Source: Thermoplasmatales archaeon SG8-52-3
GTDB lineage: Archaea > Thermoplasmatota > E2 > DHVEG-1
Assembly (NCBI GenBank): GCA_001595915.1
Contig: LSSG01000032.1
Location: forward strand, 23,142-87,141
Reading direction: 5' to 3'
DNA: 64,000 nt
Shown one piece after another: positions 3,494-40,689 of the stretch. Position numbers and translations under genes: made by a program. The notes under the pieces are model-generated. The model ran no database searches, was not told the origin of the DNA, and saw only the letters and a list, made by a program, of their open reading frames with translations. Each line of letters starts with the position of its first letter. The first letter of the stretch is position 1.

Positions 3494-4438
3494 ATGTCGG
3501 GCGAGGGCATTGGTTTTGGTAAGGCTATTTTATTTAATGAACATTTTGTGGTATATGGAGTACCAGCGATAGTTTCTGCAATTGGAAAATATACTGTTGC
3601 AAAACTTAATCAAATCGATAAACCTGGTTGGACACTTATCGATGAAAGAAAAGCAACTCCAAACTATAAGGAAGAAAAAATTGATCAGCAAAAAGATTCA
3701 ATAAATCGAATTTTGAAAAAAATGGATATTGATTTATCAAAAAAAGGACTGGAGATAACACTTGATGGAACATTGTATTGTGCAAGTGGAATAGGTGCAA
3801 GCGCAGCTTCATGTGTTGCAATTGCTAGAGCCCTATCTGAACATTTTAATCTAAATTTATCTGATGAAGAAATAAATGAAGCTGCATTTGAAGGTGAAAA
3901 AGGATATCATGGAAGTCCATCTGGAATAGATAATACAGCATCAACCTTTGGTGGTCTCATATGGTTTGAGAAAGGTGAAAATCAGGTTATGGATAAAATC
4001 TCTATTCCTGCTCCTATTGAAATAGTAATGGGTAATACCGGTAAGGTAGCAAATACAGCCGCAGCGGTTGCAGGTGTGCGTGAGAGAAGAGAAAGAAATC
4101 CTGAAAAATACAAAGAAATATTTGATAGGGCTGAAAATATCGCTTATTTAGCTAGAAATGCTCTTAAAAATGAGGATCACAAAGAGCTTGGTAAATTAAT
4201 GAATGAGAATCATAAGCTTCTTCAACAAATAGAGGTTTCTTCAAGAGAACTTGATTTCATTGTAAAACTTGCAAGGGATAATGGTGCATTTGGCGCTAAA
4301 CTTACTGGTGGTGGACTTGGTGGTAGTATAATTGCACTTACTCCTGATAAAAAGATACAGGAAGAAGTTGCAAATGCTATTGAAAAAGAAGGATTCCAAA
4401 CTTTACAAACTGTTATAGGTGCATCTAGAGAGAGGTAA
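3494..4438 (+). CDS. mvk: Mevalonate kinase
   Basis: 314 aa with GHMP-kinase motifs: GKAILFNEHFVVYG (N-terminal MVK motif), GIGASAASCVAIARA (phosphate-binding motif 2) and KLTGGGLGGSIIAL (motif 3). Confidence 0.9.
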   Translation: MSGEGIGFGKAILFNEHFVVYGVPAIVSAIGKYTVAKLNQIDKPGWTLIDERKATPNYKEEKIDQQKDSINRILKKMDIDLSKKGLEITLDGTLYCASGIGASAASCVAIARALSEHFNLNLSDEEINEAAFEGEKGYHGSPSGIDNTASTFGGLIWFEKGENQVMDKISIPAPIEIVMGNTGKVANTAAAVAGVRERRERNPEKYKEIFDRAENIAYLARNALKNEDHKELGKLMNENHKLLQQIEVSSRELDFIVKLARDNGAFGAKLTGGGLGGSIIALTPDKKIQEEVANAIEKEGFQTLQTVIGASRER

Positions 4439-4443
4439 TAATT

Positions 4444-5754
4444 ATGAATCTTCGTAGTTTTCTTACTAAACTTGAAAATGAAAGTAAACTTGTTCGGATA
4501 AAAAGAGAAGTATCTGTTAGAAATGAGATTGCAGATGTTATTTATTCTCTAAATGAGCAACCCGTTATTTTTGAAAAAGTTAAGAGTTATCCTTATCCAA
4601 TTTTTGCAGGAATTACTTCAAATCGTGATATTATTGCTGATGGACTTGGCACTATAAAGGATAAGCTTTTGTTTAAACTAGTAGATGCTTTACGTAATCC
4701 TTCTGAACCAAATTTAATTGATAAGGCACCATGTCAAGAAGTTATTATAAAAAATCCAGATATTAGCAAACTTCCACTTTTATATCATCTTAATGGAGAT
4801 GGTGGCAGGTATGCTACTGCAACAGTTGCAACAATAAAAGATCCAGATACTGGACGTAATGTTTCTTATCATCGTTTAATGGAGATAGGAAAAAACAAAT
4901 TTACAGCCCGTCTTATTCAAAAAAGGCAGACTCGTACCACTTATGATAAAATTAAGGGTGATCTTGAGATGGCAGTTTGTATTGGTAATTCGGTACCTGT
5001 TATGATTGCAGCATCTTTAGGTCCCCCATCTGGCGTTGATGAGTTCAGTATTGCCAACTCACTTGATAAAACTGATTTAGTAAAATGTATCACAAAAGAC
5101 CTTGAAGTTCCAGCTGAATCTGAATTTGTTATAGAGGGTAGACTTACCCGAGATCTTGATCGTGAGGGGCCATTTGTTGATCTTACTGAAACAAGAGATT
5201 TTGAAAGACAGGAACCTGTTTTTGAGGTTGATTGTATAACACATAGAAAGGATGCAATGTATCAAGCCTTACTACCTGGAAAATTTGAACATAAGTTACT
5301 TATGGGGATGCCTAAGGAACCAACAATTTATGATGAAGTAAGTAAGGTTGCTGATTGTAAAAATGTTTATGTAACAATGGGTGGGGGTTCTTGGCTACAT
5401 GGTATTGTTCAAATTAAAAAGAAAAATCCTGATGATGGTAAAAAGGCAATTGAAGCTGCTTTCAATGGTCATAAGAGTATGAAACACGTGACAATTGTAG
5501 ATGAGGATGTAGATATTTTCAACCCTATTGCTGTTGAATGGGCAATGGCTACTAGATTTCAGGGAGATAAAGACATGATAGTAAAACCCGATCAATCAGG
5601 TAGTTCTCTTGATCCATCTGGAAAACATGAACCTGGTAAAAAAACACTAACAACCAAGATTGGATTTGATGCAACAATACCTTTTGATGTTGATAAGAAC
5701 AAATATGAGGTTGTTAAATATAGAGAAGTTGATTCAAATGATTACCTCAGGTGA
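4444..5754 (+). CDS. UbiD-family decarboxylase, candidate trans-anhydromevalonate-5-phosphate decarboxylase of the archaeal mevalonate pathway
   Basis: 436 aa, full-length collinear with UbiD-type (prenylated-FMN dependent) decarboxylases. It starts 5 nt after mvk and sits upstream of both AcnX-type dehydratase subunits, which is the gene context that defines the archaeal modified mevalonate route. Confidence 0.75.
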   Translation: MNLRSFLTKLENESKLVRIKREVSVRNEIADVIYSLNEQPVIFEKVKSYPYPIFAGITSNRDIIADGLGTIKDKLLFKLVDALRNPSEPNLIDKAPCQEVIIKNPDISKLPLLYHLNGDGGRYATATVATIKDPDTGRNVSYHRLMEIGKNKFTARLIQKRQTRTTYDKIKGDLEMAVCIGNSVPVMIAASLGPPSGVDEFSIANSLDKTDLVKCITKDLEVPAESEFVIEGRLTRDLDREGPFVDLTETRDFERQEPVFEVDCITHRKDAMYQALLPGKFEHKLLMGMPKEPTIYDEVSKVADCKNVYVTMGGGSWLHGIVQIKKKNPDDGKKAIEAAFNGHKSMKHVTIVDEDVDIFNPIAVEWAMATRFQGDKDMIVKPDQSGSSLDPSGKHEPGKKTLTTKIGFDATIPFDVDKNKYEVVKYREVDSNDYLR

Positions 5755-6055
5755 GGGAAAATATAAGGTTTTTATTAAAAAAATCAAAAATGGAGACGAC
5801 CTCATTTATATTCTAGGTGGAGGAGAACGTTCTCATATCGGTGGAGTTGTTATCTGTGAACCTGGAATTAAAACAAATTCTATTCGAATAAAAGGGCATT
5901 ATGATGATATCGTTCTTAAACCAATAGCTGAGGTAGCTTGTGAAAAATATAATAAAAAGGTTGTTGCAATTGGGGGAGTTCATGTAGATAATGCTTCAAA
6001 AGAAGAAATAGATATATTGGTAAAAAATTGTAAGGAGTTGGTAAAATACATTTAA
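5738..6055 (+). CDS. Small LpdD-like protein (putative UbiD-associated / prenylated-flavin chaperone-like subunit)
   Basis: 105 aa counted from ATG 5738; the track ORF starts at 5660 but would overlap the UbiD gene by 95 nt. The segments GGGERSHIGGVV, KGHYDDIVLKPIAEVA and VAIGGVHVDNASKEEI line up with my recollection of Lactobacillus LpdD (GGTNPHIGDV, GRFHKDNFISERMAKRI, TAGIHVNQITKAQI). Confidence 0.5.
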   Translation: MITSGEGKYKVFIKKIKNGDDLIYILGGGERSHIGGVVICEPGIKTNSIRIKGHYDDIVLKPIAEVACEKYNKKVVAIGGVHVDNASKEEIDILVKNCKELVKYI

Positions 6056-6099
6056 CAAATGAACAAGAAAAGATACTTAAAGGTGAAAAAGGCGAAGTA

Positions 6100-7230
6100 A
6101 TGGAAAGACTTTTTAGATTGCTAGTCCGACTGGGAGAAATATACAATGCAGATAGTATGATTCCTGTTGGTTCTGTTCAAGTTGCAGGAGTGTCATATAA
6201 GTCAATTGGTGACCCAGGCATGGAATTTTTAGAAGACATTGCTTCAAAAGGAGCAAAAGTAAAAGTTCTAACTTATCTAAATCCAGCAGGAATGGATCTT
6301 GAAAACTGGAAGAAACTTGGTTTTCCAGAGGATTTTGCAAAAAATCAACTTCGAATTATAAATGCTTTTAAAAAAATGGGAATCGTGGTAACCTCCACTT
6401 GTACACCATATTTAGCAGGAAACCTTCCACGTTTCAGGGAACATATTGCTTGGTCAGAATCATCAGCTGTATCATTTTCAAATTCTGTTATTGGCGCAAG
6501 AACAAATAGGGAGGGAGGACCTTCTGCTCTTGCAGCAGCTATCTGTGGAGTTACACCAAATTATGGATTACATTTGTGGGAAAATAGACAGCCAAATGTA
6601 AAAGTTAAAGTAAATTTTAATTTGAATTATAATTCTGATTTCGGCGCTCTAGGTTGGTATGTTGGTAAGCAGGTAAAAAATAAAATCCCTTATTTTACAG
6701 GTATAAAAGATGCAAACACTGATCAACTCAAAGCACTTGGCGCTGCAATGGCTGCATCTGGTGCTGTGGCATTATATCATGTAGAAGGAATTACTCCTGA
6801 GGCTGATAATGTTAAAAAAGAAGGACTTGAGACAATTTCTGTTGGAAAAAAAGAAATCAAGGAAACATATGATAAACTTAACACTGGAAAAAAACCGGAT
6901 ATAGTAATTTTTGGCTGTCCTCATGCATCATTGCGTGAAATTTCACTTCTTGCTGATAAACTTGAAGGTAAACATTTGAAAAGACCAGTTTGGATATGTA
7001 CTTCAAGAATGGTAAAAGAAGCTGCAGAAAGAATGGGCTATAATGAAATAATTGCAAAAGCAGGTGGAAGTATTGTTGCTGATACCTGTATGGTTGTCTC
7101 ACCAATTGAGAAGATGGGATACAAAACAACAGGGGTGAATTCTGGAAAAGCAGCAAATTATCTACCTGGCTTTTGTAAACAAGAAGTGTGTTTTGCAAAT
7201 ATTGATGATCTTGTGGAGGCGCAATTATGA
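6100..7230 (+). CDS. AcnX-type (DUF521) large subunit, candidate phosphomevalonate dehydratase large subunit
   Basis: 376 aa from the first ATG. It belongs to the aconitase-X family (VAGVSYKSIGDPGMEFLEDIA..., CTPYL, GCPHAS) and is followed by the DUF126 small subunit with a 4-nt overlap. The conserved N-terminal segment appears to be encoded upstream of this ATG (see findings). Confidence 0.8.
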   Translation: MERLFRLLVRLGEIYNADSMIPVGSVQVAGVSYKSIGDPGMEFLEDIASKGAKVKVLTYLNPAGMDLENWKKLGFPEDFAKNQLRIINAFKKMGIVVTSTCTPYLAGNLPRFREHIAWSESSAVSFSNSVIGARTNREGGPSALAAAICGVTPNYGLHLWENRQPNVKVKVNFNLNYNSDFGALGWYVGKQVKNKIPYFTGIKDANTDQLKALGAAMAASGAVALYHVEGITPEADNVKKEGLETISVGKKEIKETYDKLNTGKKPDIVIFGCPHASLREISLLADKLEGKHLKRPVWICTSRMVKEAAERMGYNEIIAKAGGSIVADTCMVVSPIEKMGYKTTGVNSGKAANYLPGFCKQEVCFANIDDLVEAQL

Positions 7231-7610
7231 AAGGAAGAACAATATCTCCTGGTAAAGCAGAAGGTGAGGCAATAGTTAGCCCTGAACCTATTGGTTTCTA
7301 TGGCGGAATTGACATAAATACCGGTATTGTAATTGAAAAAGGTCATCCACTTGAAGGACGATGTGTAACAGGTAAGATACTTGTATTTCCTTGTGGTAAA
7401 GGCTCAACAGTCGGGTCCTATGTAATATATGGTCTTAAAAAAAATGACGTTGCACCAGCAGGAATAATAAATAAGGAAACAGAAACAATTGTTGCAACAG
7501 GTGTGATACTTGCAGGTATTCCTTGTATTGATAAAATTGAAATTGAAAAAATAAAAGATGGCAATAAAATATTTTTAGATGCAGACAAAGGAATTGTAGA
7601 GATTAAATAA
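7227..7610 (+). CDS. AcnX-type (DUF126) small subunit, candidate phosphomevalonate dehydratase small subunit
   Basis: 127 aa. GEAIVSPEPIGFYGGID...GKILVFPCGKGSTVGSYVIYGLKKNDVAPAGII is the characteristic DUF126 swivel-domain pattern. ATGA overlap with the large subunit. Confidence 0.8.
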   Translation: MKGRTISPGKAEGEAIVSPEPIGFYGGIDINTGIVIEKGHPLEGRCVTGKILVFPCGKGSTVGSYVIYGLKKNDVAPAGIINKETETIVATGVILAGIPCIDKIEIEKIKDGNKIFLDADKGIVEIK

Positions 7611-9062
7611 TTAAAAATTCCTCATATTCCACACACTACCAATACCAATAAGTTTTACATCATGATTTCCATCTTCATCTTGCCAAGATATTTTTCCATC
7701 GATGTTACTTAGCCCTATCTTCATTCCAACATATGTTGGGAATTTCCATATCTTTTCATATGTGTTATCTTCTTCGATATCAAGATCAAGACGGATATTA
7801 TATTTCTTTAACAGAATCTGAGATATTGGATTTGGTTTTCCCCTTATATTTAATTCAGTGGGCATTTTCAATAATAAAAATAATTTATCTGATTTTCTGA
7901 CTGTTATATCAAGATCTTCTAAGAGAGTGAGAGTATCACCTTGATCTGTTGTAATAACTAGTGAAGCAATTGGGTTAAATCTTGTTGTTCTTGCTTCTAG
8001 TAATTGGTTCCTAAAATAATATTTGTTATAGTAAATATTCCAACCGTTCTCTAATCTAATATGACACCAATCCCATCCTTTAATATTCCACTTTATAAAA
8101 CCAGATGACCAAGAGTGTTCATGATGTCCAATACCTGTTACTTTGAATTCTTGCCCATTCAATTTAATTGTACCAGAAACTTCACAACCTGTAAACATAT
8201 ATGTTGCAAGTCTAGCTTCTCCCTTATCAATTATCCTATTGCTATATATCCATAATGGTGAGGACGGTGCAAAATAGTCAAAATCTACAATTATTTCATT
8301 TTCTTTGTCAATTTCTTTATCCTCTGCATGTACGTGCCAAATAGGAGCTTCTCCTTTGGCCCATGAGTCTTCAAATTTTAAATCAACACCGGGTGTTGAT
8401 GCATCCAATCCCGAGGTCCCCAATATTCCAAGTCCAAGTATTCCTCCTCGCTTTTTGTTTATTATACCACCAAATTCTTCCCCTTCAGGACTATGGAGTG
8501 TTATTATCAAAATATCTGGTTTCATTGTTAATCTTAAATCACCCCATGCCATATGACAGAAACCAATTGTAGCAGACCAACCTGGTAGTTCACTTTCGTC
8601 ATCAAAAATTACAGTATAATACCACCATTCTCTTGTATTTGTAATTTTATTGAAATGAGCGCCTTCATCTTGTGGAGAAACATCTCTCATATTACCAGTA
8701 ACAATAGAATATGGAAGATTTTCAATTGCTGAAAACTTCCAGGTTGACAGTATTGTTTTTGTTGGAACATGCCTTATTGTTATTGTTCCTTCACATTGTG
8801 TAATTTGATCTCCTTCTGTAACAAATCTACCTAGAGTTGATGTGTCACAATCACCAATAATTTCGATATCTTTCCATAATACCTCATCTGACAATGATAC
8901 TACTGTAAGAGTTTTTTCTCTATCATCTTTTTTGAATTGAATATCAGGTATATCTGGTCCATCGTAGTCAAAGATGTAACCTAATCTATAGAAAATAAAA
9001 CCAGCTATAATTATCATAGCTATTATGATTATTGCATCAATCTTTCTCGTTCGTGTACTCAT
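7611..9062 (-). CDS. Membrane-anchored AttH/CrtC-like (lipocalin-like, carotenoid-1,2-hydratase family) protein
   Basis: 483 aa with an N-terminal TM anchor. TREWWYYTVIF...GFCHMAWGDL resembles the EWWY signature of the AttH/CrtC N-terminal domain, and a second half contains GIGHHEHSWS / WDWCHIRL. Confidence 0.45.
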   Translation of the reverse strand: MSTRTRKIDAIIIIAMIIIAGFIFYRLGYIFDYDGPDIPDIQFKKDDREKTLTVVSLSDEVLWKDIEIIGDCDTSTLGRFVTEGDQITQCEGTITIRHVPTKTILSTWKFSAIENLPYSIVTGNMRDVSPQDEGAHFNKITNTREWWYYTVIFDDESELPGWSATIGFCHMAWGDLRLTMKPDILIITLHSPEGEEFGGIINKKRGGILGLGILGTSGLDASTPGVDLKFEDSWAKGEAPIWHVHAEDKEIDKENEIIVDFDYFAPSSPLWIYSNRIIDKGEARLATYMFTGCEVSGTIKLNGQEFKVTGIGHHEHSWSSGFIKWNIKGWDWCHIRLENGWNIYYNKYYFRNQLLEARTTRFNPIASLVITTDQGDTLTLLEDLDITVRKSDKLFLLLKMPTELNIRGKPNPISQILLKKYNIRLDLDIEEDNTYEKIWKFPTYVGMKIGLSNIDGKISWQDEDGNHDVKLIGIGSVWNMRNF

Positions 9063-13511: not shown

Positions 13512-13575
13512 ACAATTTGATACTAATTCTTTAAAATAAATGTAGATAGGATGTGATGTGCACACACATATACAT

Positions 13576-13623
13576 ATTCAACTGCGAAAAAGACACTTAA
13601 ATAGTTGAATAATTTATTTTTTA
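13576..13623 (+). terminator. Candidate carB terminator: weak hairpin followed by a T-run
   Basis: attcaact (13576-13583) pairs with agttgaat (13603-13610) around a 19-nt loop, followed by tttttt at 13617-13622. Confidence 0.3.
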
Positions 13624-14064
13624 TCAACAATGTGGGAAGGGATGAAGCCCATATTTTCGATATTTGAGAAAACCCATCCAATTACCCCTCAAAATTCACC
13701 TCTTCTTCCCTCCCATTATGTTGGTATTTTTTTTCAAAATTTATTTCTAAATGTAATTTTAACAAATTTATCCATTTTCATAATGACATTATATCCCAAA
13801 ATCTTTAAATAACATCATTTACAGAATATAACATTGTGAGTGGTGTAATTAAATGAGGATTGTAAGTGAAATAAATAACAAACAAGAACTCGAAGATATG
13901 AAACTTATTATGGAAATCTTTGTAGTAAATAATAGAATAAGACAACTTGCAGAAGAAGCATAATTCACAATATCTGAATTTATAATTTTTTTTTAAGCTA
14001 TTTCAATGGGAATGTTAATAATATTGTTGTAGATTACTGACCAGCTATCCATAGGGGGTAGATT

Positions 14065-14586
14065 ATGGTAGAGAGAAGTGATATTGAAGCTGTTTTTTCA
14101 AAGGAATTACAATGGATAAAAGACGATTTTTTAAAAAATAAAGTTGTTGACGTTTGGAAAGAAGCAGCTTATCGGGGATGCTGGAAATCTCTTGATGATG
14201 CACCTTTTACTCTTCTTATTAAAGACTCTGGAAAACTTACTGATCATACAAAAAGGATTACAAATCTTGCAAAAGTAATATATGATCAAAGACAAGAAAA
14301 TATTAATTTAGATTTTTTAATTGCTGGTGCTCTTCTACATGATGTGGGAAAACTCTTAGAATATGAATATAAAGATGGAGAATTTGTAAAGTGTGATTAT
14401 GGTAAGAAATTTCGTCATCCAGTATCTGGAGCACTTCTTGCAAAAGAATTAGGCTTACCTGATGAAGTTGTTCTGATTATATATGCTCATTCCCATGAGG
14501 GGGACAATCTTAAAAGGTCACCTGAGGCAGTAATAGTTAATCATAGTGATTTTATTGATTTTGAAATAAAAAAAGCATTGGTGTAA
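14065..14586 (+). CDS. HD-domain metal-dependent phosphohydrolase
   Basis: 173 aa with the LLHDVGKLLEYE (HD motif) and AHSHEGD histidine cluster. First gene of a four-gene plus-strand operon with gaps of 3, 6 and 18 nt. Confidence 0.65.
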   Translation: MVERSDIEAVFSKELQWIKDDFLKNKVVDVWKEAAYRGCWKSLDDAPFTLLIKDSGKLTDHTKRITNLAKVIYDQRQENINLDFLIAGALLHDVGKLLEYEYKDGEFVKCDYGKKFRHPVSGALLAKELGLPDEVVLIIYAHSHEGDNLKRSPEAVIVNHSDFIDFEIKKALV

Positions 14587-14589
14587 TAA

Positions 14590-16077
14590 ATGAAAGTTAG
14601 GAATGCTGCTGGTAGGGAAATAGAAACAGAAATTGCTGGCAGGACTCTTAAACCATTTTTAGGTGCAAAAAAGCATACCTATCATTCAAAGATTACAAAT
14701 CTTTCAAATGCATTAAAAAAATGTGGAATAAAGGATGGCGATACTCTTTCTTTTCATCATCAACTGCGTAATGGTGATTTTGTAGTAAATATTACACTTG
14801 CTGCTGTTCGCGATTTAGGTATAAAAAATATTAGAATGGCACAAACTGCAATTTTCAATGTTCATGAACCTGTGATTGATTTTATAAAAGAAGGTGTTGT
14901 AAATCGAATCGAAGGAAGCATAAATGGAATTGTTGGAGATTTTATTTCTAAAAATCCACTTTCTTATCCAGTAGTGCTTAGATCGCATGGTGGAAGGTGG
15001 GCTGCCGTAAAGACTGGCGAATTGCATCCAAATATAGCAATAATTGCTGCATCAACATCTGATGAATGTGGAAATTGTACAGGTGTTCTTGGAGATAGTG
15101 CATTTGGGCCTATTTCTTATTCACAAGTTGATGCACTATATGCAGATCATGTTATTGTTGTAACTGATAATATTGTTGGTTATCCATGTAAATTTCAAGA
15201 GATACAAGAAAGAAATGTCGATTGTGTTGCACAAGTCGATCATATTGGTGATCCAAAAAACATCATGTCTGGTACTACAAAAATCACAGAAGACCCAATG
15301 AAATTGCAGATTGCTCGTGACTGTGTAGACCTTATGGATGCTGCAGGTCTTATAAAGGATGGAATGGTTTTTCAGTCAGGGGCAGGTGGAATATCACTTG
15401 CAGCAATGAAATTTCTTGGAGAAAGACTCGAGGAGAAAGATGTGGTTGCTTCAACAGCAACAGGTGGTCTTACTCGACTTATAGTTGATATTTACAAAGC
15501 TGGAAGAGTTAAAAATATTTATTACTCCCAGGTATTTGATGATTATTCTGTAAAATTTATTCAGGAGGATATTGGTCTTCCAGCAGATATTGGTCATTAT
15601 GCTGATCCAACATCAAAAGGGAGAACAATTGATGGACTTGATACAGTTGTTCTTGGTGCTACAGAAGTTGATATAAATTTCAATGTAAATGTAAATACCC
15701 ATAGTGATGGTAGAATGCTTCATGGAATTGGTGGTCATCAGGATACTGCTGCAGGATCATCTTTATGCATTGTTACTTGCCCTGTTTTTAGAAAAACAAA
15801 TCCAATAGTAAAAGAGAAAGTAACAACAATTTCAACTCCTGGTGATGTAGTTGATGCAATAGTAACAGATAAAGGAACTGCAATAAATCCTAAAAGAAAA
15901 GACCTTATTGAAAAAGTAAAGGGAAGAATTAAAATTGTTCCAATTGAAGATTTAAAACAATTAGCATATGATGCAACTGGAGGTCCCCAAGAATTGCATT
16001 TTACCGATGAAATTGTTGGTATGACCAAATGGTTTGATGGAACAGTTTTGGATAATATTTGGAAAGTAAAGGAGTGA
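14590..16077 (+). CDS. citF: Citrate lyase alpha-subunit-like CoA/ACP transferase (CitF family)
   Basis: 495 aa. LSNALKKCGIKDGDTLSFHHQLRNGDFVVNITLAAVRDLGIKNI is collinear with the E. coli CitF N-terminal region (LEEAIRRSGLQDGMTVSFHHAFRGGDLTVNMVM...GFKNL, as I recall it), and the size matches. Confidence 0.75.
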   Translation: MKVRNAAGREIETEIAGRTLKPFLGAKKHTYHSKITNLSNALKKCGIKDGDTLSFHHQLRNGDFVVNITLAAVRDLGIKNIRMAQTAIFNVHEPVIDFIKEGVVNRIEGSINGIVGDFISKNPLSYPVVLRSHGGRWAAVKTGELHPNIAIIAASTSDECGNCTGVLGDSAFGPISYSQVDALYADHVIVVTDNIVGYPCKFQEIQERNVDCVAQVDHIGDPKNIMSGTTKITEDPMKLQIARDCVDLMDAAGLIKDGMVFQSGAGGISLAAMKFLGERLEEKDVVASTATGGLTRLIVDIYKAGRVKNIYYSQVFDDYSVKFIQEDIGLPADIGHYADPTSKGRTIDGLDTVVLGATEVDINFNVNVNTHSDGRMLHGIGGHQDTAAGSSLCIVTCPVFRKTNPIVKEKVTTISTPGDVVDAIVTDKGTAINPKRKDLIEKVKGRIKIVPIEDLKQLAYDATGGPQELHFTDEIVGMTKWFDGTVLDNIWKVKE

Positions 16078-16083
16078 TATTTT

Positions 16084-16854
16084 ATGAAATGGACTACTAA
16101 AATTACCAAGGTAGAGCCCAATCATCTAGTAACAAAAGGATATAGACAAGAAGATCTTATAGGAAATGTCCCCTATTCCCATGTAGTTTATCTTCTTCTA
16201 AAAGGTGAACTGCCATCAGATGAGCATGGAAAAATGATGGATGCAATTCTTACTGCATGTATTGATCATGGAGTTACTCCTCCTTCTTCAATTGCTTCTA
16301 GAGTAGTTGCCTCAGGAGGGGTTCCTCTTCCAACTGCTGTTGCAGCAGGGATATTATCTATCGGTGATGCACATGGTGGAGCAATAGAAAAAGGTGCAAA
16401 ATTCTTACAGGATGGAATTTATAGAATGGTGCATGAAGGAAAAACAATAGGTGAAATTGCAAAGATTCTAGTAGCAGAATCAAGAGATAAAAAGAAAAGA
16501 ATATTAGGTTTTGGTCATAGAGTTCATACAAAAGATCCTCGTACTAAAAAATTGTTCATCCTTGCTGATGAATTAAAAATCTCTGGTAGTCACATTGCTC
16601 TTTCTAAAGCAATACAAAAAGAACTTCCCAAACAAACCGGTAAAAATCTTCCAATTAATGTTGATGGTGCAATTGCAGCAATTTCTTCTGATATGGGTTT
16701 TGATTGGAAACTTGGAAAAGCATTCTTTTTACTTGGAAGAGTTGCAGGTCTAACCGCTCATGTTTATGAAGAACAAACTGAGCAGAAACCAATGAGAAAA
16801 ATGTTTAATGATGAAAGTGAGTATGAAGGTCCTGTGGAGAGAAATTTACCATAA
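16084..16854 (+). CDS. Short citrate-synthase-fold protein, citryl-CoA lyase-like
   Basis: 256 aa. It has the citrate-synthase catalytic-core motifs GFGHRVHTKDPRTKKL, DHG and NVDG...GRVAGLTAHVYEE but lacks the N-terminal part of a full citrate synthase. Size and layout resemble the Hydrogenobacter-type citryl-CoA lyase / ACL C-terminal domain. Confidence 0.7.
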   Translation: MKWTTKITKVEPNHLVTKGYRQEDLIGNVPYSHVVYLLLKGELPSDEHGKMMDAILTACIDHGVTPPSSIASRVVASGGVPLPTAVAAGILSIGDAHGGAIEKGAKFLQDGIYRMVHEGKTIGEIAKILVAESRDKKKRILGFGHRVHTKDPRTKKLFILADELKISGSHIALSKAIQKELPKQTGKNLPINVDGAIAAISSDMGFDWKLGKAFFLLGRVAGLTAHVYEEQTEQKPMRKMFNDESEYEGPVERNLP

Positions 16855-16872
16855 TTTTGAGGAGAAGAAAAC

Positions 16873-18633
16873 ATGGGTAAAACAATAATTCAAAAGATTT
16901 TTGAGAATCATTCAAAGCAATCTGCTGTTGTCGGTGAAATAATTGATATTGATATCGATGTAAGAGTTGCTAGAGATTTTGGTGGAGCAAACGTTGTAAA
17001 AAATCTTGAGGAAAATAACCTAAAATTAGATGATCCTGATAAGACATATTTTACATTTGATTGCAATCCTGGTGGTTGTGATCAGAAATATGCCACAAAT
17101 CAACACATTTGCAGGATTTTTGCAAGAAAAAATAATGTAAAAATTTTTGATATCAGTAGTGGAATAGGAACTCACTTGGTAATTGATGAGAAAATTGCAA
17201 AACCTGGTGGAACAATAGTTTCCACTGATTCTCATGCAAATATTCTTGGAGCAATTGGAGCCTTTGGTCAAGGTATGGGTGACAAAGATATTGCTCATGC
17301 ATTTGCCTATGGAAAAGTCTGGTTTAAGGTTCCTCCGACAATTAAAATAGAGCTTAAGGGTAGACCTTCTAATATTACAACTCCAAAGGATGTAGCGCTC
17401 AAACTATTGCAAGAGTTTGGTGCAAACGGACTATTAGGTTTTTCTGCTGAAATCTATGGTGATTATGTTGATATGTTACCACTAGATGCAAGAATTACTA
17501 TAGCATCAATGGCAACTGAAATGGGTGGAATAATTATTCTTTTTCCTTTCAAAAAAGCAATTACTGCTGATTCAGATGCAGATTATGAAGATGCTGTTAA
17601 AGTTGATATTGAAGGTCTTAAACCAATGGTTTCCCTACCTGGTCATCCTGAGGATGTAGTTAGTATTGATGAATTAGATAATGTTAAGGTAGATTCAGGG
17701 TTCATTGGTTCATGTACAAATGGACGAATTTCTGATATGAGAGCCGCTGCTAAAATTATGAAGGACAGAAAGATTGCACCTGGTAGGGTTCTAAAAATTG
17801 TTCCTTCCACTGATGATGTATGGAAGAAATGCCTCGAAGGAGGATTAATTAAAATATTTAAGGATGCAGGTGCCCTTTTTGGGTCAGCAGGTTGTGCTGG
17901 TTGTGCAGCAGGTCAGATTGGACAGACTGGAACAGGCGAGATTGCGATTTCTTCAGGAAATAGAAATTTTGTAGGTAAACAGGGTAAAGGAGACACATAT
18001 CTTGCAAGCCCTGAAACGGTTGCAGCTTCTCTTATTGCAGGATACATTACATCTATTGACGAAATCCCTGATAAACCAGTTTCAATAAATGTTCCAGAAT
18101 CTTCTCATAAAATATCACATTTAAAAAAAGATTTGAAAATATCCAGACTTACAAGTGTTGAAGGTAAAGCATGGGTAATTAAGAAAGACAATATTGATAC
18201 AGATATGATTTTTCATAATAGATATCTAGCGATAACAGACATAAATGAGATGGGGCAATATACTTTTGATAACCTAGAAGGTTATGAAAATTTTTCAAAA
18301 AAGGCTAATCCTGGCGATATTGTAATTGCTGGCAAGAACTTTGGAGCAGGAAGCTCAAGACAACAGGCTGTAGATTGCTTTAAGTCATTAAAAATAAGTG
18401 TAATCATCGCTGAATCTTTTGGAGCAATTTATGAGCGTAATGCAATCAATAGTGCTATGCCTATTTTAATTGCAAGGGATATCACAAGCAAGGTAAGTGA
18501 TGGAGATATATTATCTGTTGATTTCACTACCGGTAAAATTATAAACAAAACAAAAAACACAGGAATAAATGTAAAACCATTTTCAAAATCTCAACTTGAT
18601 ATTTATAAAAATGGTGGATTGTTAAAAAAATAA
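16873..18633 (+). CDS. Aconitase-family hydro-lyase, fused large (LeuC/HacA-like) and small (LeuD-like) domains
   Basis: 586 aa. It shows TDSHAN, GSCTNGRISD and GCAGCAAGQIG (Fe-S ligand region), then a swivel domain with GKNFGAGSSRQQAVDCF. The substrate cannot be assigned from sequence. Confidence 0.75.
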   Translation: MGKTIIQKIFENHSKQSAVVGEIIDIDIDVRVARDFGGANVVKNLEENNLKLDDPDKTYFTFDCNPGGCDQKYATNQHICRIFARKNNVKIFDISSGIGTHLVIDEKIAKPGGTIVSTDSHANILGAIGAFGQGMGDKDIAHAFAYGKVWFKVPPTIKIELKGRPSNITTPKDVALKLLQEFGANGLLGFSAEIYGDYVDMLPLDARITIASMATEMGGIIILFPFKKAITADSDADYEDAVKVDIEGLKPMVSLPGHPEDVVSIDELDNVKVDSGFIGSCTNGRISDMRAAAKIMKDRKIAPGRVLKIVPSTDDVWKKCLEGGLIKIFKDAGALFGSAGCAGCAAGQIGQTGTGEIAISSGNRNFVGKQGKGDTYLASPETVAASLIAGYITSIDEIPDKPVSINVPESSHKISHLKKDLKISRLTSVEGKAWVIKKDNIDTDMIFHNRYLAITDINEMGQYTFDNLEGYENFSKKANPGDIVIAGKNFGAGSSRQQAVDCFKSLKISVIIAESFGAIYERNAINSAMPILIARDITSKVSDGDILSVDFTTGKIINKTKNTGINVKPFSKSQLDIYKNGGLLKK

Positions 18634-21830: not shown

Positions 21831-22145
21831 TTAATGTGTTTTTACAGCTGTCCCAAAGGCAATAATTTCAGCAGCACTTCCCATAGTTTGGGCTGTTGCA
21901 AATCTCATACAAATTACTGCATCCGCATCTAGATTTTTTGCATCATCAATCATTCTTTGCATAGCAGTTCTTCTTGCCTCTTCCATAAGTTCAGTATAAG
22001 GCTTGCTTTCACCACCAATAATTGTTCTTCCAGCTGCTCTTAAATCCTTTCCTATATGCTTCATTTGTACGCAGCAGCCAAAAACAATTCCTAATACTTC
22101 TTTTGCCTCTCTTCCAGGTATATTTTCAGTTGTTGTAACCATCAT
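21831..22145 (-). CDS. YbjQ/UPF0145 family protein (copy 1)
   Basis: 104 aa. TTENIPGREAKEVLGIVFG...DADAVICMRFATAQTMGSAAEIIAFGTAVK is the canonical YbjQ_1 pattern. Confidence 0.8.
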   Translation of the reverse strand: MMVTTTENIPGREAKEVLGIVFGCCVQMKHIGKDLRAAGRTIIGGESKPYTELMEEARRTAMQRMIDDAKNLDADAVICMRFATAQTMGSAAEIIAFGTAVKTH

Positions 22146-24169: not shown

Positions 24170-24484
24170 CTATTTAAGTTTTACAGCAGTTCCATATGCA
24201 AGAATTTCTGCAGCACCGCCCATTATCGAGGAGGTCATAAAACGAACATTTATTACTGCATCAGCACCCATTTTTTTTGCTTTATCTTCCATTCTTTTTA
24301 ATGCGATTTCTCTAGATTCAGCAAGCATCTCAGTATATTCCTTAATTTCACCACCTACCATATGTCGAAAACCTGCTTTTATGTCTTTACCTATACTTTT
24401 TGCTTGAATAGTATTTCCTCTTACTAAACCTAAAATTTCCTTTATTTCTTTACCAATTACAAAATCAGTATTTACTATTATCAT
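24170..24484 (-). CDS. YbjQ/UPF0145 family protein (copy 2)
   Basis: 104 aa, the same length as copy 1 and alignable throughout (GADAVINVRFMTSSIMGGAAEILAYGTAVK). Confidence 0.8.
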   Translation of the reverse strand: MIIVNTDFVIGKEIKEILGLVRGNTIQAKSIGKDIKAGFRHMVGGEIKEYTEMLAESREIALKRMEDKAKKMGADAVINVRFMTSSIMGGAAEILAYGTAVKLK

Positions 24485-39375: not shown

Positions 39376-40689
39376 TTAGTTTTCAATTCTTCTCTTATTT
39401 GTATAAGTCATACCTTGAAATGAAATAGAGGTAATTGTTATAAGTGGAAAAAGTCCTTTATTCACATTTCTTCCTATTATCCTTAAAATATTTGAAGGAT
39501 TATAAAATCCATTATACATCTTTTGTATACCATTCATCAAATCATCAGCTGTTAGATTTTTTGGCTTGTAAACAACATTTTTACCGTCATATTTGCTCCA
39601 ATCCTTAATTACAATTCGATTTTGTCTTTCATATTCATCAAATAATGGTGTCCCTGGAAATGGAGTTAATATATGAAACTCTGCTTTATCAATATCAGAT
39701 TTACAAATGAAATCAAGGGTACTATCAAAAATATCAGTTTTATCAGCATCAAAACCAAACATGAATGAACCTTCAACGTTCATACCAAAGTTATGAATTT
39801 TATTTATAACAGATAAATATTGTTCAGAAACATTTGTTTTTTTTCCAATTGAATCAAGAGACTTTTGAGATATTGAATCAAAACCTATTGTCCAAGAAAT
39901 GCAACCAGCCTCTTGTGCAAATCTTAAAAGTTCTTCATCCTTAAATAAAATATTTGCATTTCCATAACAATAAAACTTTTTACCTAAATCTTTCATATTT
40001 TTAAACAATTCTTTTGTATAATTAGTATTAATTGTTAAAGATGCATCACTAAAAAGTATATACTTTTGAGGAATTTTTTGAATTTCATTTATCACTTGAT
40101 CAATAGGTCTAACCCTAAACACTCTACGTCCGGGACTATGAGAAATCGCACAGAAGTTACAACCATGTGGACATCCTCTGGTAGCTTCTATTGCTACAGC
40201 AGAATTGATTCCTTTTTGCTTTATTCTTCCATTCCCATAATTTGGTAAAAGAGAAAGATCGACTGGTTTTTCTTGTCTATATATTTGTTTTAACTTATCT
40301 TCCTCAATATCTTTAAGTAACTGTGGCCAAAGCTCTTCAGCCTCCCCGATAACTATACTGTCAGCATGTTGTTTTGCTTCTTCTGGAAGAGCAGAAGGGT
40401 GCCAACCACCTAGAACAACCTTTTTTCCTCTTTTTCTAAAATTTTCAGATATCTCATATGCTTTTAGAGCTTGATTCGTCATTACAGATATCCCAATTAA
40501 ATCGTAGTTCTTTTCGTAATCAATATTTTCTAATCTTTCATCTATAATCTCAATCGAATTTTTTTCAGGAGTCATATTTGTAAGAGCCTTAAAAGCAGGA
40601 ATTATTGGATTTGAAAAAATACTAAAAAATTTAACAATAAATGAAGGTAAGGTCTTTACAGGATTTGGGTATATTAATAATATTTTCAT
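39376..40689 (-). CDS. B12-binding-domain radical SAM protein
   Basis: 437 aa with an N-terminal cobalamin-binding-like Rossmann region followed by EATRGCPHGCNFCAIS (the CxxxCxxC radical-SAM cluster motif). Confidence 0.8.
   Translation of the reverse strand: MKILLIYPNPVKTLPSFIVKFFSIFSNPIIPAFKALTNMTPEKNSIEIIDERLENIDYEKNYDLIGISVMTNQALKAYEISENFRKRGKKVVLGGWHPSALPEEAKQHADSIVIGEAEELWPQLLKDIEEDKLKQIYRQEKPVDLSLLPNYGNGRIKQKGINSAVAIEATRGCPHGCNFCAISHSPGRRVFRVRPIDQVINEIQKIPQKYILFSDASLTINTNYTKELFKNMKDLGKKFYCYGNANILFKDEELLRFAQEAGCISWTIGFDSISQKSLDSIGKKTNVSEQYLSVINKIHNFGMNVEGSFMFGFDADKTDIFDSTLDFICKSDIDKAEFHILTPFPGTPLFDEYERQNRIVIKDWSKYDGKNVVYKPKNLTADDLMNGIQKMYNGFYNPSNILRIIGRNVNKGLFPLITITSISFQGMTYTNKRRIEN

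Follow-up and report, generated by a model that had tools for sequence, protein, structure and literature searches.

How might an archaeon cleave citrate with the transferase of one known system and the lyase of another, spending neither ATP nor a protein-bound prosthetic group? The question is raised by four co-directional genes in a stretch of 64,000 nucleotides (contig LSSG01000032.1, hereafter the window) from Thermoplasmatales archaeon SG8-52-3, a White Oak River metagenome-assembled genome (MAG) of MBG-D/Thermoprofundales. In this order, they code for an HD-domain protein (HD), a CitF-type citrate coenzyme A (CoA)-transferase, a short citrate-synthase-fold citryl-CoA lyase (CCL), and a fused LeuC/LeuD-type Fe-S hydro-lyase, and the gaps between them measure only 3, 6, and 18 nt; open reading frames (ORFs), strand, and gaps are exactly those reported in a first-pass annotation of the window (Table 1). 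Among the steps of metabolism of the reductive tricarboxylic acid (TCA) type, citrate cleavage is the rarest and the most diagnostic, and its recognised CoA-dependent forms are ATP-citrate lyase (ACL) and the pair of citryl-CoA synthetase (CCS) and CCL, next to the fermentative citrate lyase CitDEF, which depends on acyl carrier protein (ACP). We favour, with moderate confidence, the reading that HD-CitF-CCL is a conserved Thermoprofundales operon for a two-enzyme citrate lyase that would work through free citryl-CoA, without ACP and without ATP.

Family membership of the transferase and the lyase

Profile searches upheld the families to which the first-pass annotation had assigned CitF and CCL (PF04223, NF004866, NF004869). 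Specifically, the window CitF scores 443 bits against PF04223 and 491.5 bits against TIGR01584, marginally below a cut-off of 501.45 bits that one ortholog (L076) clears with 504.6 bits. Salmonella CitF (1XR4) matches it with 370 bits over residues 21-494, and E. coli CitF, 38% identical, reaches 356 bits in a six-frame search of the window. Conservation over 76 CitF orthologs extends to the motifs SFHHQLRNGD, (A/L)-E-(V/I)-D-x-NFNVNV, and GIGGHQD, bacterial CitF also has E-(V/I)-D-x-NFNVNV and GGH-DTA/GIGGHQD, and the window protein takes its place among the CitF alpha subunits of the bacterial citrate lyase complex.

The window CCL carries a Citrate_synt C-terminal domain, scores 298 bits against the NCBIfam 'citryl-CoA lyase' subfamilies NF004866 and NF004869 (cut-offs 245 and 212), and aligns over its full length with the CCL of Hydrogenobacter thermophilus (6HXP; 241 bits, 49.6% identity). 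Its 256 amino acids are ~100 fewer than those of a full-length citrate synthase (the B. subtilis enzyme was compared), and all citrate synthase equivalog models score it far below their cut-offs. Moreover, H62 (in DHG), H97 (HGGA), H145/R146 (GHR), R153 (DPR), D194 (NVDG), R219 (GRvAG), and R238 are invariant in 69 orthologs; following the established citrate synthase literature, we take H97/H145/D194 to be the His/His/Asp triad and the arginines to bind oxaloacetate. The active-site residues by which the first-pass annotation proposed to judge the protein are thus in place, and it has the form, a short lyase with the catalytic triad, that is found in the CCS/CCL system.

Conservation of the trio and exchange of its transferase

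The CitF alignment was scanned against one genome per GTDB species, which yielded 80 loci, all in Thermoplasmatota MAGs, with 61-93% identity plus one at 44%; flanks were inspected up to 20 kb per locus, and counts are given over the loci that extend far enough. CCL directly follows CitF, on the same strand and with tiny gaps, in 65 of the 68 informative loci, HD precedes CitF in 65 of 72, and the fused hydro-lyase follows CCL in 36 of 61 (~60%). The HD-CitF-CCL arrangement is therefore kept in related archaea far beyond chance; of the four-gene synteny suggested at first, the trio has held and the hydro-lyase has proved a partial companion. The trio is found in at least four unrelated genomic contexts (L015, L064, L076, L082) and therefore behaves as a unit.

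The other components of the known systems are missing around it. Probes for CitC, CitD, CitE, CitX, CitG, and CitT, taken from the citCDEFXG-citT operon of E. coli MG1655, found no match in any of the six frames of the 64-kb window at E<=10, and those for CitC, CitD, CitE, CitX, and CitG found none in the flanks of the 80 loci (E<=1e-4 for CitE); the CitD probe was a single sequence, by which a very divergent 98-aa CitD could be missed in the window and in the 80 loci. Succinyl-CoA-synthetase/CCS-like probes (SucC/SucD-like, taken from L098) likewise matched nothing in the window or the 80 genome loci, and the ATP-grasp and CoA-binding/phospho-His subunits typical of ACL are absent from the window and present in the close relatives L096-L100 described below. 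The first-pass statement that the window encodes no CitD, CitE, CitG, CitX, or CCS subunit is thereby borne out, and over the window and the 80 loci neither the CitE nor the CitD/CitG/CitX/CitC set of a CitDEF system was found locally. Since ACP and the prosthetic-group enzymes are missing, the carrier would be free CoA or another soluble thiol.

The strongest indication of a shared intermediate comes from loci in which one partner has been exchanged. A long citrate-synthase-like protein (347-360 amino acids) replaces the 256-aa CCL after CitF in L050, L074, and L076, and in the first of these a 360-aa lyase follows a CitF that is still 76% identical to that of the window. A metagenome scan with the long-lyase sequences recovered further HD-CitF-long-lyase loci (L092-L095, L101) together with five loci free of CitF (L096-L100). 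The slot of the latter is filled by a protein of 427-433 amino acids with ATP-grasp_2 and CoA-ligase domains and by a second one of 711-715 amino acids with CoA-binding, CoA-ligase, and citrate-synthase domains, a pair with the architecture of a two-subunit ACL. In the contig L098, HD, a SucC-like protein (427 amino acids), a SucD-like::citrate-synthase-like fusion (715 amino acids), and the fused hydro-lyase are followed by a small reverse ORF, an ACT-domain protein, an ABC2 permease, and an ABC ATPase, in the same order as in the window, and the flanking proteins of the two contigs are, in gene order, 68, 76, 47, 75, 69, and 84% identical. The swap thus leaves HD in place and keeps the hydro-lyase, and the fused L098 protein has both the GHAG phospho-histidine motif and the lyase motifs.

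In a distance tree, the standalone long lyase of L095, a CitF partner, and the lyase domain fused to the L098 synthetase are sisters (79% identity), and their clade holds lyases that partner CitF as well as lyases fused to a synthetase; the short CCLs form a clade whose sister is the Hydrogenobacter enzyme, and the proteobacterial short lyases fall outside both clades. CitF hence pairs with two lineages of citrate-synthase-fold lyases, a short Aquificae-like and a long ACL-like one, and CitF and the citryl-CoA-synthetase-like module, which depends on ATP, can replace one another as partners of the same lyase at the same genomic position, as is expected if CitF makes, or consumes, the acyl-CoA substrate of the lyase. 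Because CitF and CCL are replaced by an ACL-type pair in a syntenic contig, CitF most likely makes free citryl-CoA. The central idea of the first-pass annotation, that CitF supplies free citryl-CoA to a citrate-synthase-fold lyase with no need of ACP or ATP, thus finds support in the searches and in the syntenic exchange. Lastly, the synthetase parts of the L096-L100 enzymes are most similar to succinyl-CoA synthetase and less so to CCS and ACL, and the C-terminal domain of the fused protein, a full-length citrate-synthase-like domain of ~360 residues, is nearest to the Hydrogenobacter CCL; these enzymes may represent an independent or early-branching assembly of the ACL type. Behind the ACL-type version of L100 come a thiolase and a fusion of 3-hydroxyacyl-CoA dehydrogenase and enoyl-CoA hydratase, neighbours that hint at a connection of citrate cleavage with biosynthesis that consumes acetyl-CoA.

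Proposed reaction, its direction, and other readings

In the proposed mechanism, CitF would catalyse the reaction acyl-CoA + citrate -> citryl-CoA + acid, moving CoA from a donor, most simply acetyl-CoA, to citrate with formation of (3S)-citryl-CoA and the free acid. Family membership and synteny suggest this role, and the isolated alpha subunit of bacterial citrate lyase performs the corresponding half-reaction (EC 2.8.3.10). The short lyase would then split citryl-CoA into oxaloacetate and acetyl-CoA (citryl-CoA <-> acetyl-CoA + oxaloacetate, EC 4.1.3.34, the known activity of CCL), regenerating the donor, as its ~50% identity to a characterised enzyme and its conserved active-site residues indicate. 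The net reaction would be citrate -> oxaloacetate + acetate, and what is new is the combination of the half-reactions and the use of a free thioester. The equilibrium constant of citrate = acetate + oxaloacetate is ~1 M, because the citrate synthase reaction and acetyl-CoA hydrolysis have nearly the same free energy; at cellular concentrations the balance therefore lies strongly on the side of cleavage, which should dominate in vivo. Re-activation of acetate by an ADP-forming acetyl-CoA synthetase would make the system equal to ACL.

The module would thus recombine features of known systems. With CitDEF (EC 4.1.3.6, served by CitC, CitG, and CitX) it shares the transferase family, the net chemistry, and a citryl thioester intermediate that is regenerated as an acetyl thioester; in contrast to CitDEF, it lacks CitD, CitE, CitG, CitX, and CitC and has a lyase of the citrate synthase fold. 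The lyase family and the free citryl-CoA are those of the CCS/CCL route of Hydrogenobacter thermophilus, in which, however, citryl-CoA is made by an ATP-dependent succinyl-CoA-synthetase-like enzyme instead of a family I CoA-transferase. The lyase domain of ACL (AclAB/ACLY) is homologous, and the ACL architecture takes the same slot between HD and the hydro-lyase in L096-L100; conversely, the window system has no ATP-grasp/CoA-ligase domains, would use no ATP, and would give acetate with acetyl-CoA as donor. Citrate synthase, including its use in the reversed oxidative TCA cycle, has the same fold, His/His/Asp triad, and oxaloacetate-binding arginines, but the window protein has 256 amino acids and clusters with the lyases, and its transferase partner would remove the need for thioester hydrolysis. 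Lastly, a similar logic of transferase followed by lyase is seen in Proteobacteria, where a family III CoA-transferase lies immediately 5' of a short citrate-synthase-fold lyase (PRK06224), next to tricarboxylate/DASS transporters, in three of the five plasmid loci inspected (Table 1), although the transferase belongs to PF02515 and not to CitF, and the lyases are only 32-40% identical. No characterisation of this widespread proteobacterial pair was found in the full-text literature; it appears to be an independent recurrence of the pairing of a CoA-transferase with a citrate-synthase-fold lyase, and as such it is counted in favour of the proposed mechanism. In an Agrobacterium locus, a gene of the isocitrate-lyase/phosphoenolpyruvate-mutase family follows the CoA-transferase and the short lyase.

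Several points weigh against an ATP-free citrate lyase. Substrate, CoA donor, and direction are all deduced from sequence, and free acetyl-CoA is assumed to be an efficient substrate of the archaeal CitF; bacterial CitF natively uses as its thiol a dephospho-CoA derivative attached to ACP. If acetyl-CoA is the donor, the module would give acetate and no net acetyl-CoA, and it is by itself not a full equivalent of ACL. The accompanying hydro-lyase and dehydrogenase are LeuCD/LeuB-like and not a canonical aconitase and isocitrate dehydrogenase, the substrate of the L098 enzyme is predicted from its architecture, in which the synthetase parts resemble succinyl-CoA synthetase more than they do characterised ACL or CCS, and the absence of CitD, CitE, CitG, and CitX holds for the window and for 80 flanks of up to 20 kb. 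Moreover, the three informative loci in which CCL does not follow CitF (L054, L069, L084) have orphan CitF genes, paralogs or relatives that lack HD, CCL, and Cit partners alike and lie next to genes for a sulfotransferase and peptidases; two of the three are second copies in the genomes of L016 and L027, which also have the full cluster.

The same two enzymes could be imagined to run in the opposite direction as a split citrate synthase that conserves the thioester: CCL would condense acetyl-CoA with oxaloacetate and CitF would pass the CoA on to acetate, for a net conversion of acetate + oxaloacetate to citrate in which acetate is activated without ATP, and the ACL-type version would make ATP, a mode of operation reportedly used by Desulfobacter postgatei. 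CCL is in fact the only 'citrate synthase' listed for SG8-52-3, SG8-52-4, SM1-50, and others, and the sole gene of the citrate synthase family in most Thermoprofundales MAGs, for which aconitase and LeuB-type dehydrogenase genes are listed; aclAB was reported absent, and from this absence the authors concluded that the TCA cycle is oxidative only, while CitF is not listed in the supplementary gene tables searched (PMC6461988). The listing of CCL as the only 'citrate synthase' and the reported lack of aclAB are also counted in favour of the proposed cleavage. A study on Desulfurella offers a precedent for a thioester-saving CoA-transferase in an oxidative TCA cycle (PMC9768450), and the locus L076, with lyase, isomerase, and dehydrogenase, resembles an oxidative branch. 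We nonetheless regard citrate synthesis by this module, and the net reaction that it implies, as unlikely. The CitDEF complex of bacteria catalyses the same net reaction and acts as a lyase, and with a constant of ~1 M citrate would have to stay orders of magnitude below the product of oxaloacetate and acetate, i.e., at nanomolar levels if oxaloacetate is micromolar and acetate millimolar, and such levels are implausible for the downstream enzymes. It is improbable that the pair acts on a citrate analogue, such as citramalate (giving pyruvate and acetate), 2-methylcitrate, or homocitrate, with the LeuCD-type hydro-lyase and the LeuB-type dehydrogenase as its true partners in a route of 2-oxoacid chain elongation or degradation. 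In favour of this reading, citramalate lyase has an alpha subunit homologous to CitF, and the hydro-lyase is LeuCD-like, with a loop devoid of the arginine that homoaconitase uses for the gamma-carboxylate. SG8-52-3 has, in addition, a separate gene annotated as aconitase (PMC6461988), and the L076 dehydrogenase scores best with homoisocitrate/isopropylmalate dehydrogenase models. The CCL, however, is about half identical to an enzyme that cleaves citryl-CoA and keeps every Arg/His that binds the carboxylates of oxaloacetate, CitF lies near or over the citF equivalog cut-off, the module that displaces it has the architecture of ACL, and the hydro-lyase is missing from ~40% of the loci. Of these, the oxaloacetate-binding residues and the ACL-type displacement make a citramalate lyase analog, the other option of the first-pass annotation, the less likely one.

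Highly improbable, lastly, is an adjacency with no shared intermediate, in which CitF would have another role or would find CitD, CitE, CitX, and CitG encoded elsewhere, and the 256-aa protein would be a minimal citrate synthase. The scope of the Cit gene searches (window and 80 flanks), the orphan CitF copies, and the name 'citrate synthase' given to CCL by KEGG-based annotation leave room for it. Nevertheless, the citCDEFXG genes of bacteria are contiguous (E. coli) and none lies within 10 kb of CitF in the 80 genomes; the pairing of CitF with a lyase outlasts both the relocation of the cluster and the replacement of the lyase lineage; and CitF is swapped in situ for a citryl-CoA-synthetase-like module, an exchange that would make no sense unless CitF supplied the substrate of the lyase.

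No description of the CitF-CCL pairing was found in a search of the full-text literature, in keeping with the first-pass annotation, to whose author none was known, and cleavage of citrate by CitF and CCL is probably an undescribed ATP-free process. Orphan CCLs have been noted in Methanobacteria in one preprint, and carbon-fixation surveys use only aclAB or ccs/ccl as markers. If the proposed mechanism is true, CitF with a citrate-synthase-fold lyase is a fourth arrangement for citrate cleavage that recombines halves of two systems and dispenses with both ATP and prosthetic-group machinery. The in situ alternation of CitF and the succinyl-CoA-synthetase-like synthetase::lyase fusion is a natural experiment on the assembly of ACL-type enzymes. 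Thermoprofundales are among the most abundant archaea of marine sediments, and the module is conserved across this globally abundant lineage, in published models of which the lyase was counted as 'citrate synthase'. It is a more tentative proposal, which we consider possible but doubtful, that Thermoprofundales use CitF, a citrate-synthase-fold lyase, and free citryl-CoA as a third, hitherto unrecognised type of citrate-cleaving system that replaces ACL in concert with ADP-forming acetyl-CoA synthetase. If so, it would allow 2-oxoglutarate/glutamate to be converted reductively into oxaloacetate and acetyl units, or even a full reductive TCA cycle to run, surveys based on aclAB or ccsAB would miss the system, and both HD and the LeuCD-type fusion would count as new components dedicated to this route, e.g., a new type of aconitase.

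Accessory genes and genomic neighbourhood

HD and the hydro-lyase probably serve the same citrate pathway, e.g., by supplying citrate from isocitrate or 2-oxoglutarate, since both travel with the CitF and with the synthetase version of the module. HD matches PF01966 (44.8 bits) and the HDIG domain TIGR00277, and an AlphaFold model built with an alignment (pLDDT 95) has the HD domain of YhaM as top structural match (TM 0.71), followed by generic HD phosphohydrolases. The residues H61, H92-D93, H118, H142, and D162 are invariant and agree with the H...HD...D ligand pattern of metal-dependent hydrolases of the all-helical HD fold, and the six would form a putative ligand set typical of dinuclear HD sites. 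Profile, fold, and PHROGs searches on HD gave only the generic HD fold, with the YhaM domain as best match. HD is the constant first gene of the cluster and also lies 5' of the ACL-type variant (L098, L100); since it is found with CitF and with the synthetase alike, it is not CitF-specific, and a function as a CitF-specific cofactor-processing enzyme is unlikely. A GGGGG ribosome-binding-like motif is located immediately 5' of the HD start codon, and an AT-rich intergenic region of 553 nt, which contains a 36-aa ORF annotated by gene callers in the ENA copy of the contig, separates HD from carB. A single open frame of L079 has matches to HD and to the last 280 residues of CitF, which may reflect a fusion, a deletion, or an artefact of assembly.

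The hydro-lyase comprises Aconitase and Aconitase_C domains, with best matches of the LeuC/LeuD type. Its best NCBIfam score is 362.5 bits, under the cut-off of 385 for the large-subunit family NF001614; its large-subunit and full-length matches stay under every equivalog cut-off, and the only one passed is that of the LeuD-type small-subunit subfamily TIGR02087 (138.3 against 108.95). The nearest solved structures are the subunits of homoaconitase and of the isopropylmalate/citramalate isomerase of M. jannaschii. The cysteine ligand motifs SCTNGR and GCAGCA, which place the protein in the Fe-S hydro-lyase superfamily, are invariant among the orthologs, as are 261 of the 586 positions. The specificity loop reads YL[S/H/A/T][I/V]T in 37 orthologs, in which it fits neither YLRT nor YLVY, sequences that, from the M. 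jannaschii literature, we take to be diagnostic of homoaconitase and of isopropylmalate isomerase, respectively.

The hydro-lyase persists beside the ACL-type variant (76% identity to the window protein in L098). Moreover, the module lies beside LeuCD-type isomerases and an Iso_dh gene in two loci: in L100, the hydro-lyase stands between the Iso_dh gene and the synthetase-lyase pair, and in L076, HD is immediately preceded by a split relative, and another LeuCD pair and Iso_dh follow downstream. Its retention beside the ACL-type variant, with Iso_dh/LeuCD in L100 and L076, ties the hydro-lyase to the pathway, and it is an accessory member of the cluster. A role as the aconitase of the cell was considered and is weakened by the atypical loop and by a separate AcnA-type gene, KYK34852.1, annotated for SG8-52-3 in the Thermoprofundales supplement (PMC6461988) and distinct from the window hydro-lyase. 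The first-pass suggestion that this enzyme could feed the module is in line with its adjacency in 36 of 61 loci and in the ACL-type variant, and the cell would not depend on it for aconitase activity. In the closed MAG CP070836.1 (L015), only a 150-aa remnant of the hydro-lyase remains after CCL.

Table 1. Positions of the operon genes, of neighbouring features, and of related loci (window positions unless a locus is named)
Feature	Coordinates	Strand	Length	Accession	Remark
HD-domain protein gene	14065-14586	+	173 aa	KYK33155.1	NCBI name 'hypothetical'
CitF-type citrate CoA-transferase gene	14590-16077	+	495 aa	KYK33156.1	NCBI 'hypothetical protein'
Short citrate-synthase-fold CCL gene	16084-16854	+	256 aa	KYK33157.1	NCBI 'citryl-CoA lyase'
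Fused LeuC/LeuD-type Fe-S hydro-lyase gene	16873-18633	+	586 aa	KYK33158.1	NCBI 'homoaconitate hydratase'
Mevalonate-pathway-type cluster	3494-7610	+			
Membrane-anchored protein gene	7611-9062	-	483 aa		
carB-HD intergenic region	13512-14064		553 nt		
ORF in carB-HD intergenic region	13853-13963		36 aa		
YbjQ-family genes	21831-22145; 24173-24484	-			PF01906
Radical SAM homolog	39376-40689	-			
ACL-architecture loci	L098:1210-4628; L100:5568-9074; also L096, L097, L099				Thermoplasmatota
Proteobacterial module	L086:4769-6780; L087:4754-6798; L088:1650-3786				plasmids; TctABC or DASS transporters adjacent
Orphan CitF genes	L054:1806-3293; L069:3654-5147; L084:8772-10313				
Hydro-lyase remnant	L015:12279-12728		150 aa		
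Frame matching HD and CitF	L079:1881-3341				
B12-binding radical SAM gene sets (examples)	L002:12325-21403; L041:14376-16301				

In most loci, the trio lies beside archaeal mevalonate-pathway genes and a divergent membrane-anchored protein. The mevalonate-type cluster, located upstream of the trio in ~40-46 related loci, comprises genes for a GHMP kinase, a UbiD-like decarboxylase, a small LpdD-like protein (PF21758), and the large and small AcnX subunits; the LpdD-like gene sits between the decarboxylase and AcnX and may be an unrecognised decarboxylase accessory. A link of the module to the mevalonate pathway, or a substrate of the HMG-CoA type, was set aside on account of the CarAB genes or the C25 peptidase gene inserted between the mevalonate cluster and the trio in several lineages and of the four unrelated contexts of the trio, and the mevalonate genes are treated as neighbourhood and not as members of the operon. 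The 483-aa protein encoded divergently to HD, conserved in 54 loci, has an N-terminal membrane anchor and a weak match to the CrtC-lipocalin family (18 bits). The rest of the window codes for peptidases, ABC transporters, tRNA-related enzymes, PurB, and complex-I-like subunits, and no further TCA genes are seen among its encoded proteins.

In ~20 loci without the hydro-lyase, CCL is followed by genes for a B12-binding radical SAM protein, an AMP-binding protein, and a nicotianamine-synthase-like methyltransferase, and the same loci carry two UbiA prenyltransferases and an NAD-dependent epimerase; this set looks like a separate unit for lipid modification, and a homolog of its radical SAM protein is encoded elsewhere in the window. 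Lastly, two YbjQ-family genes are located, with small ORFs and a hydrolase of the S9/DLH type, downstream of the ABC2/ABC pair that flanks the citrate module, and similar pairs occur in many loci.

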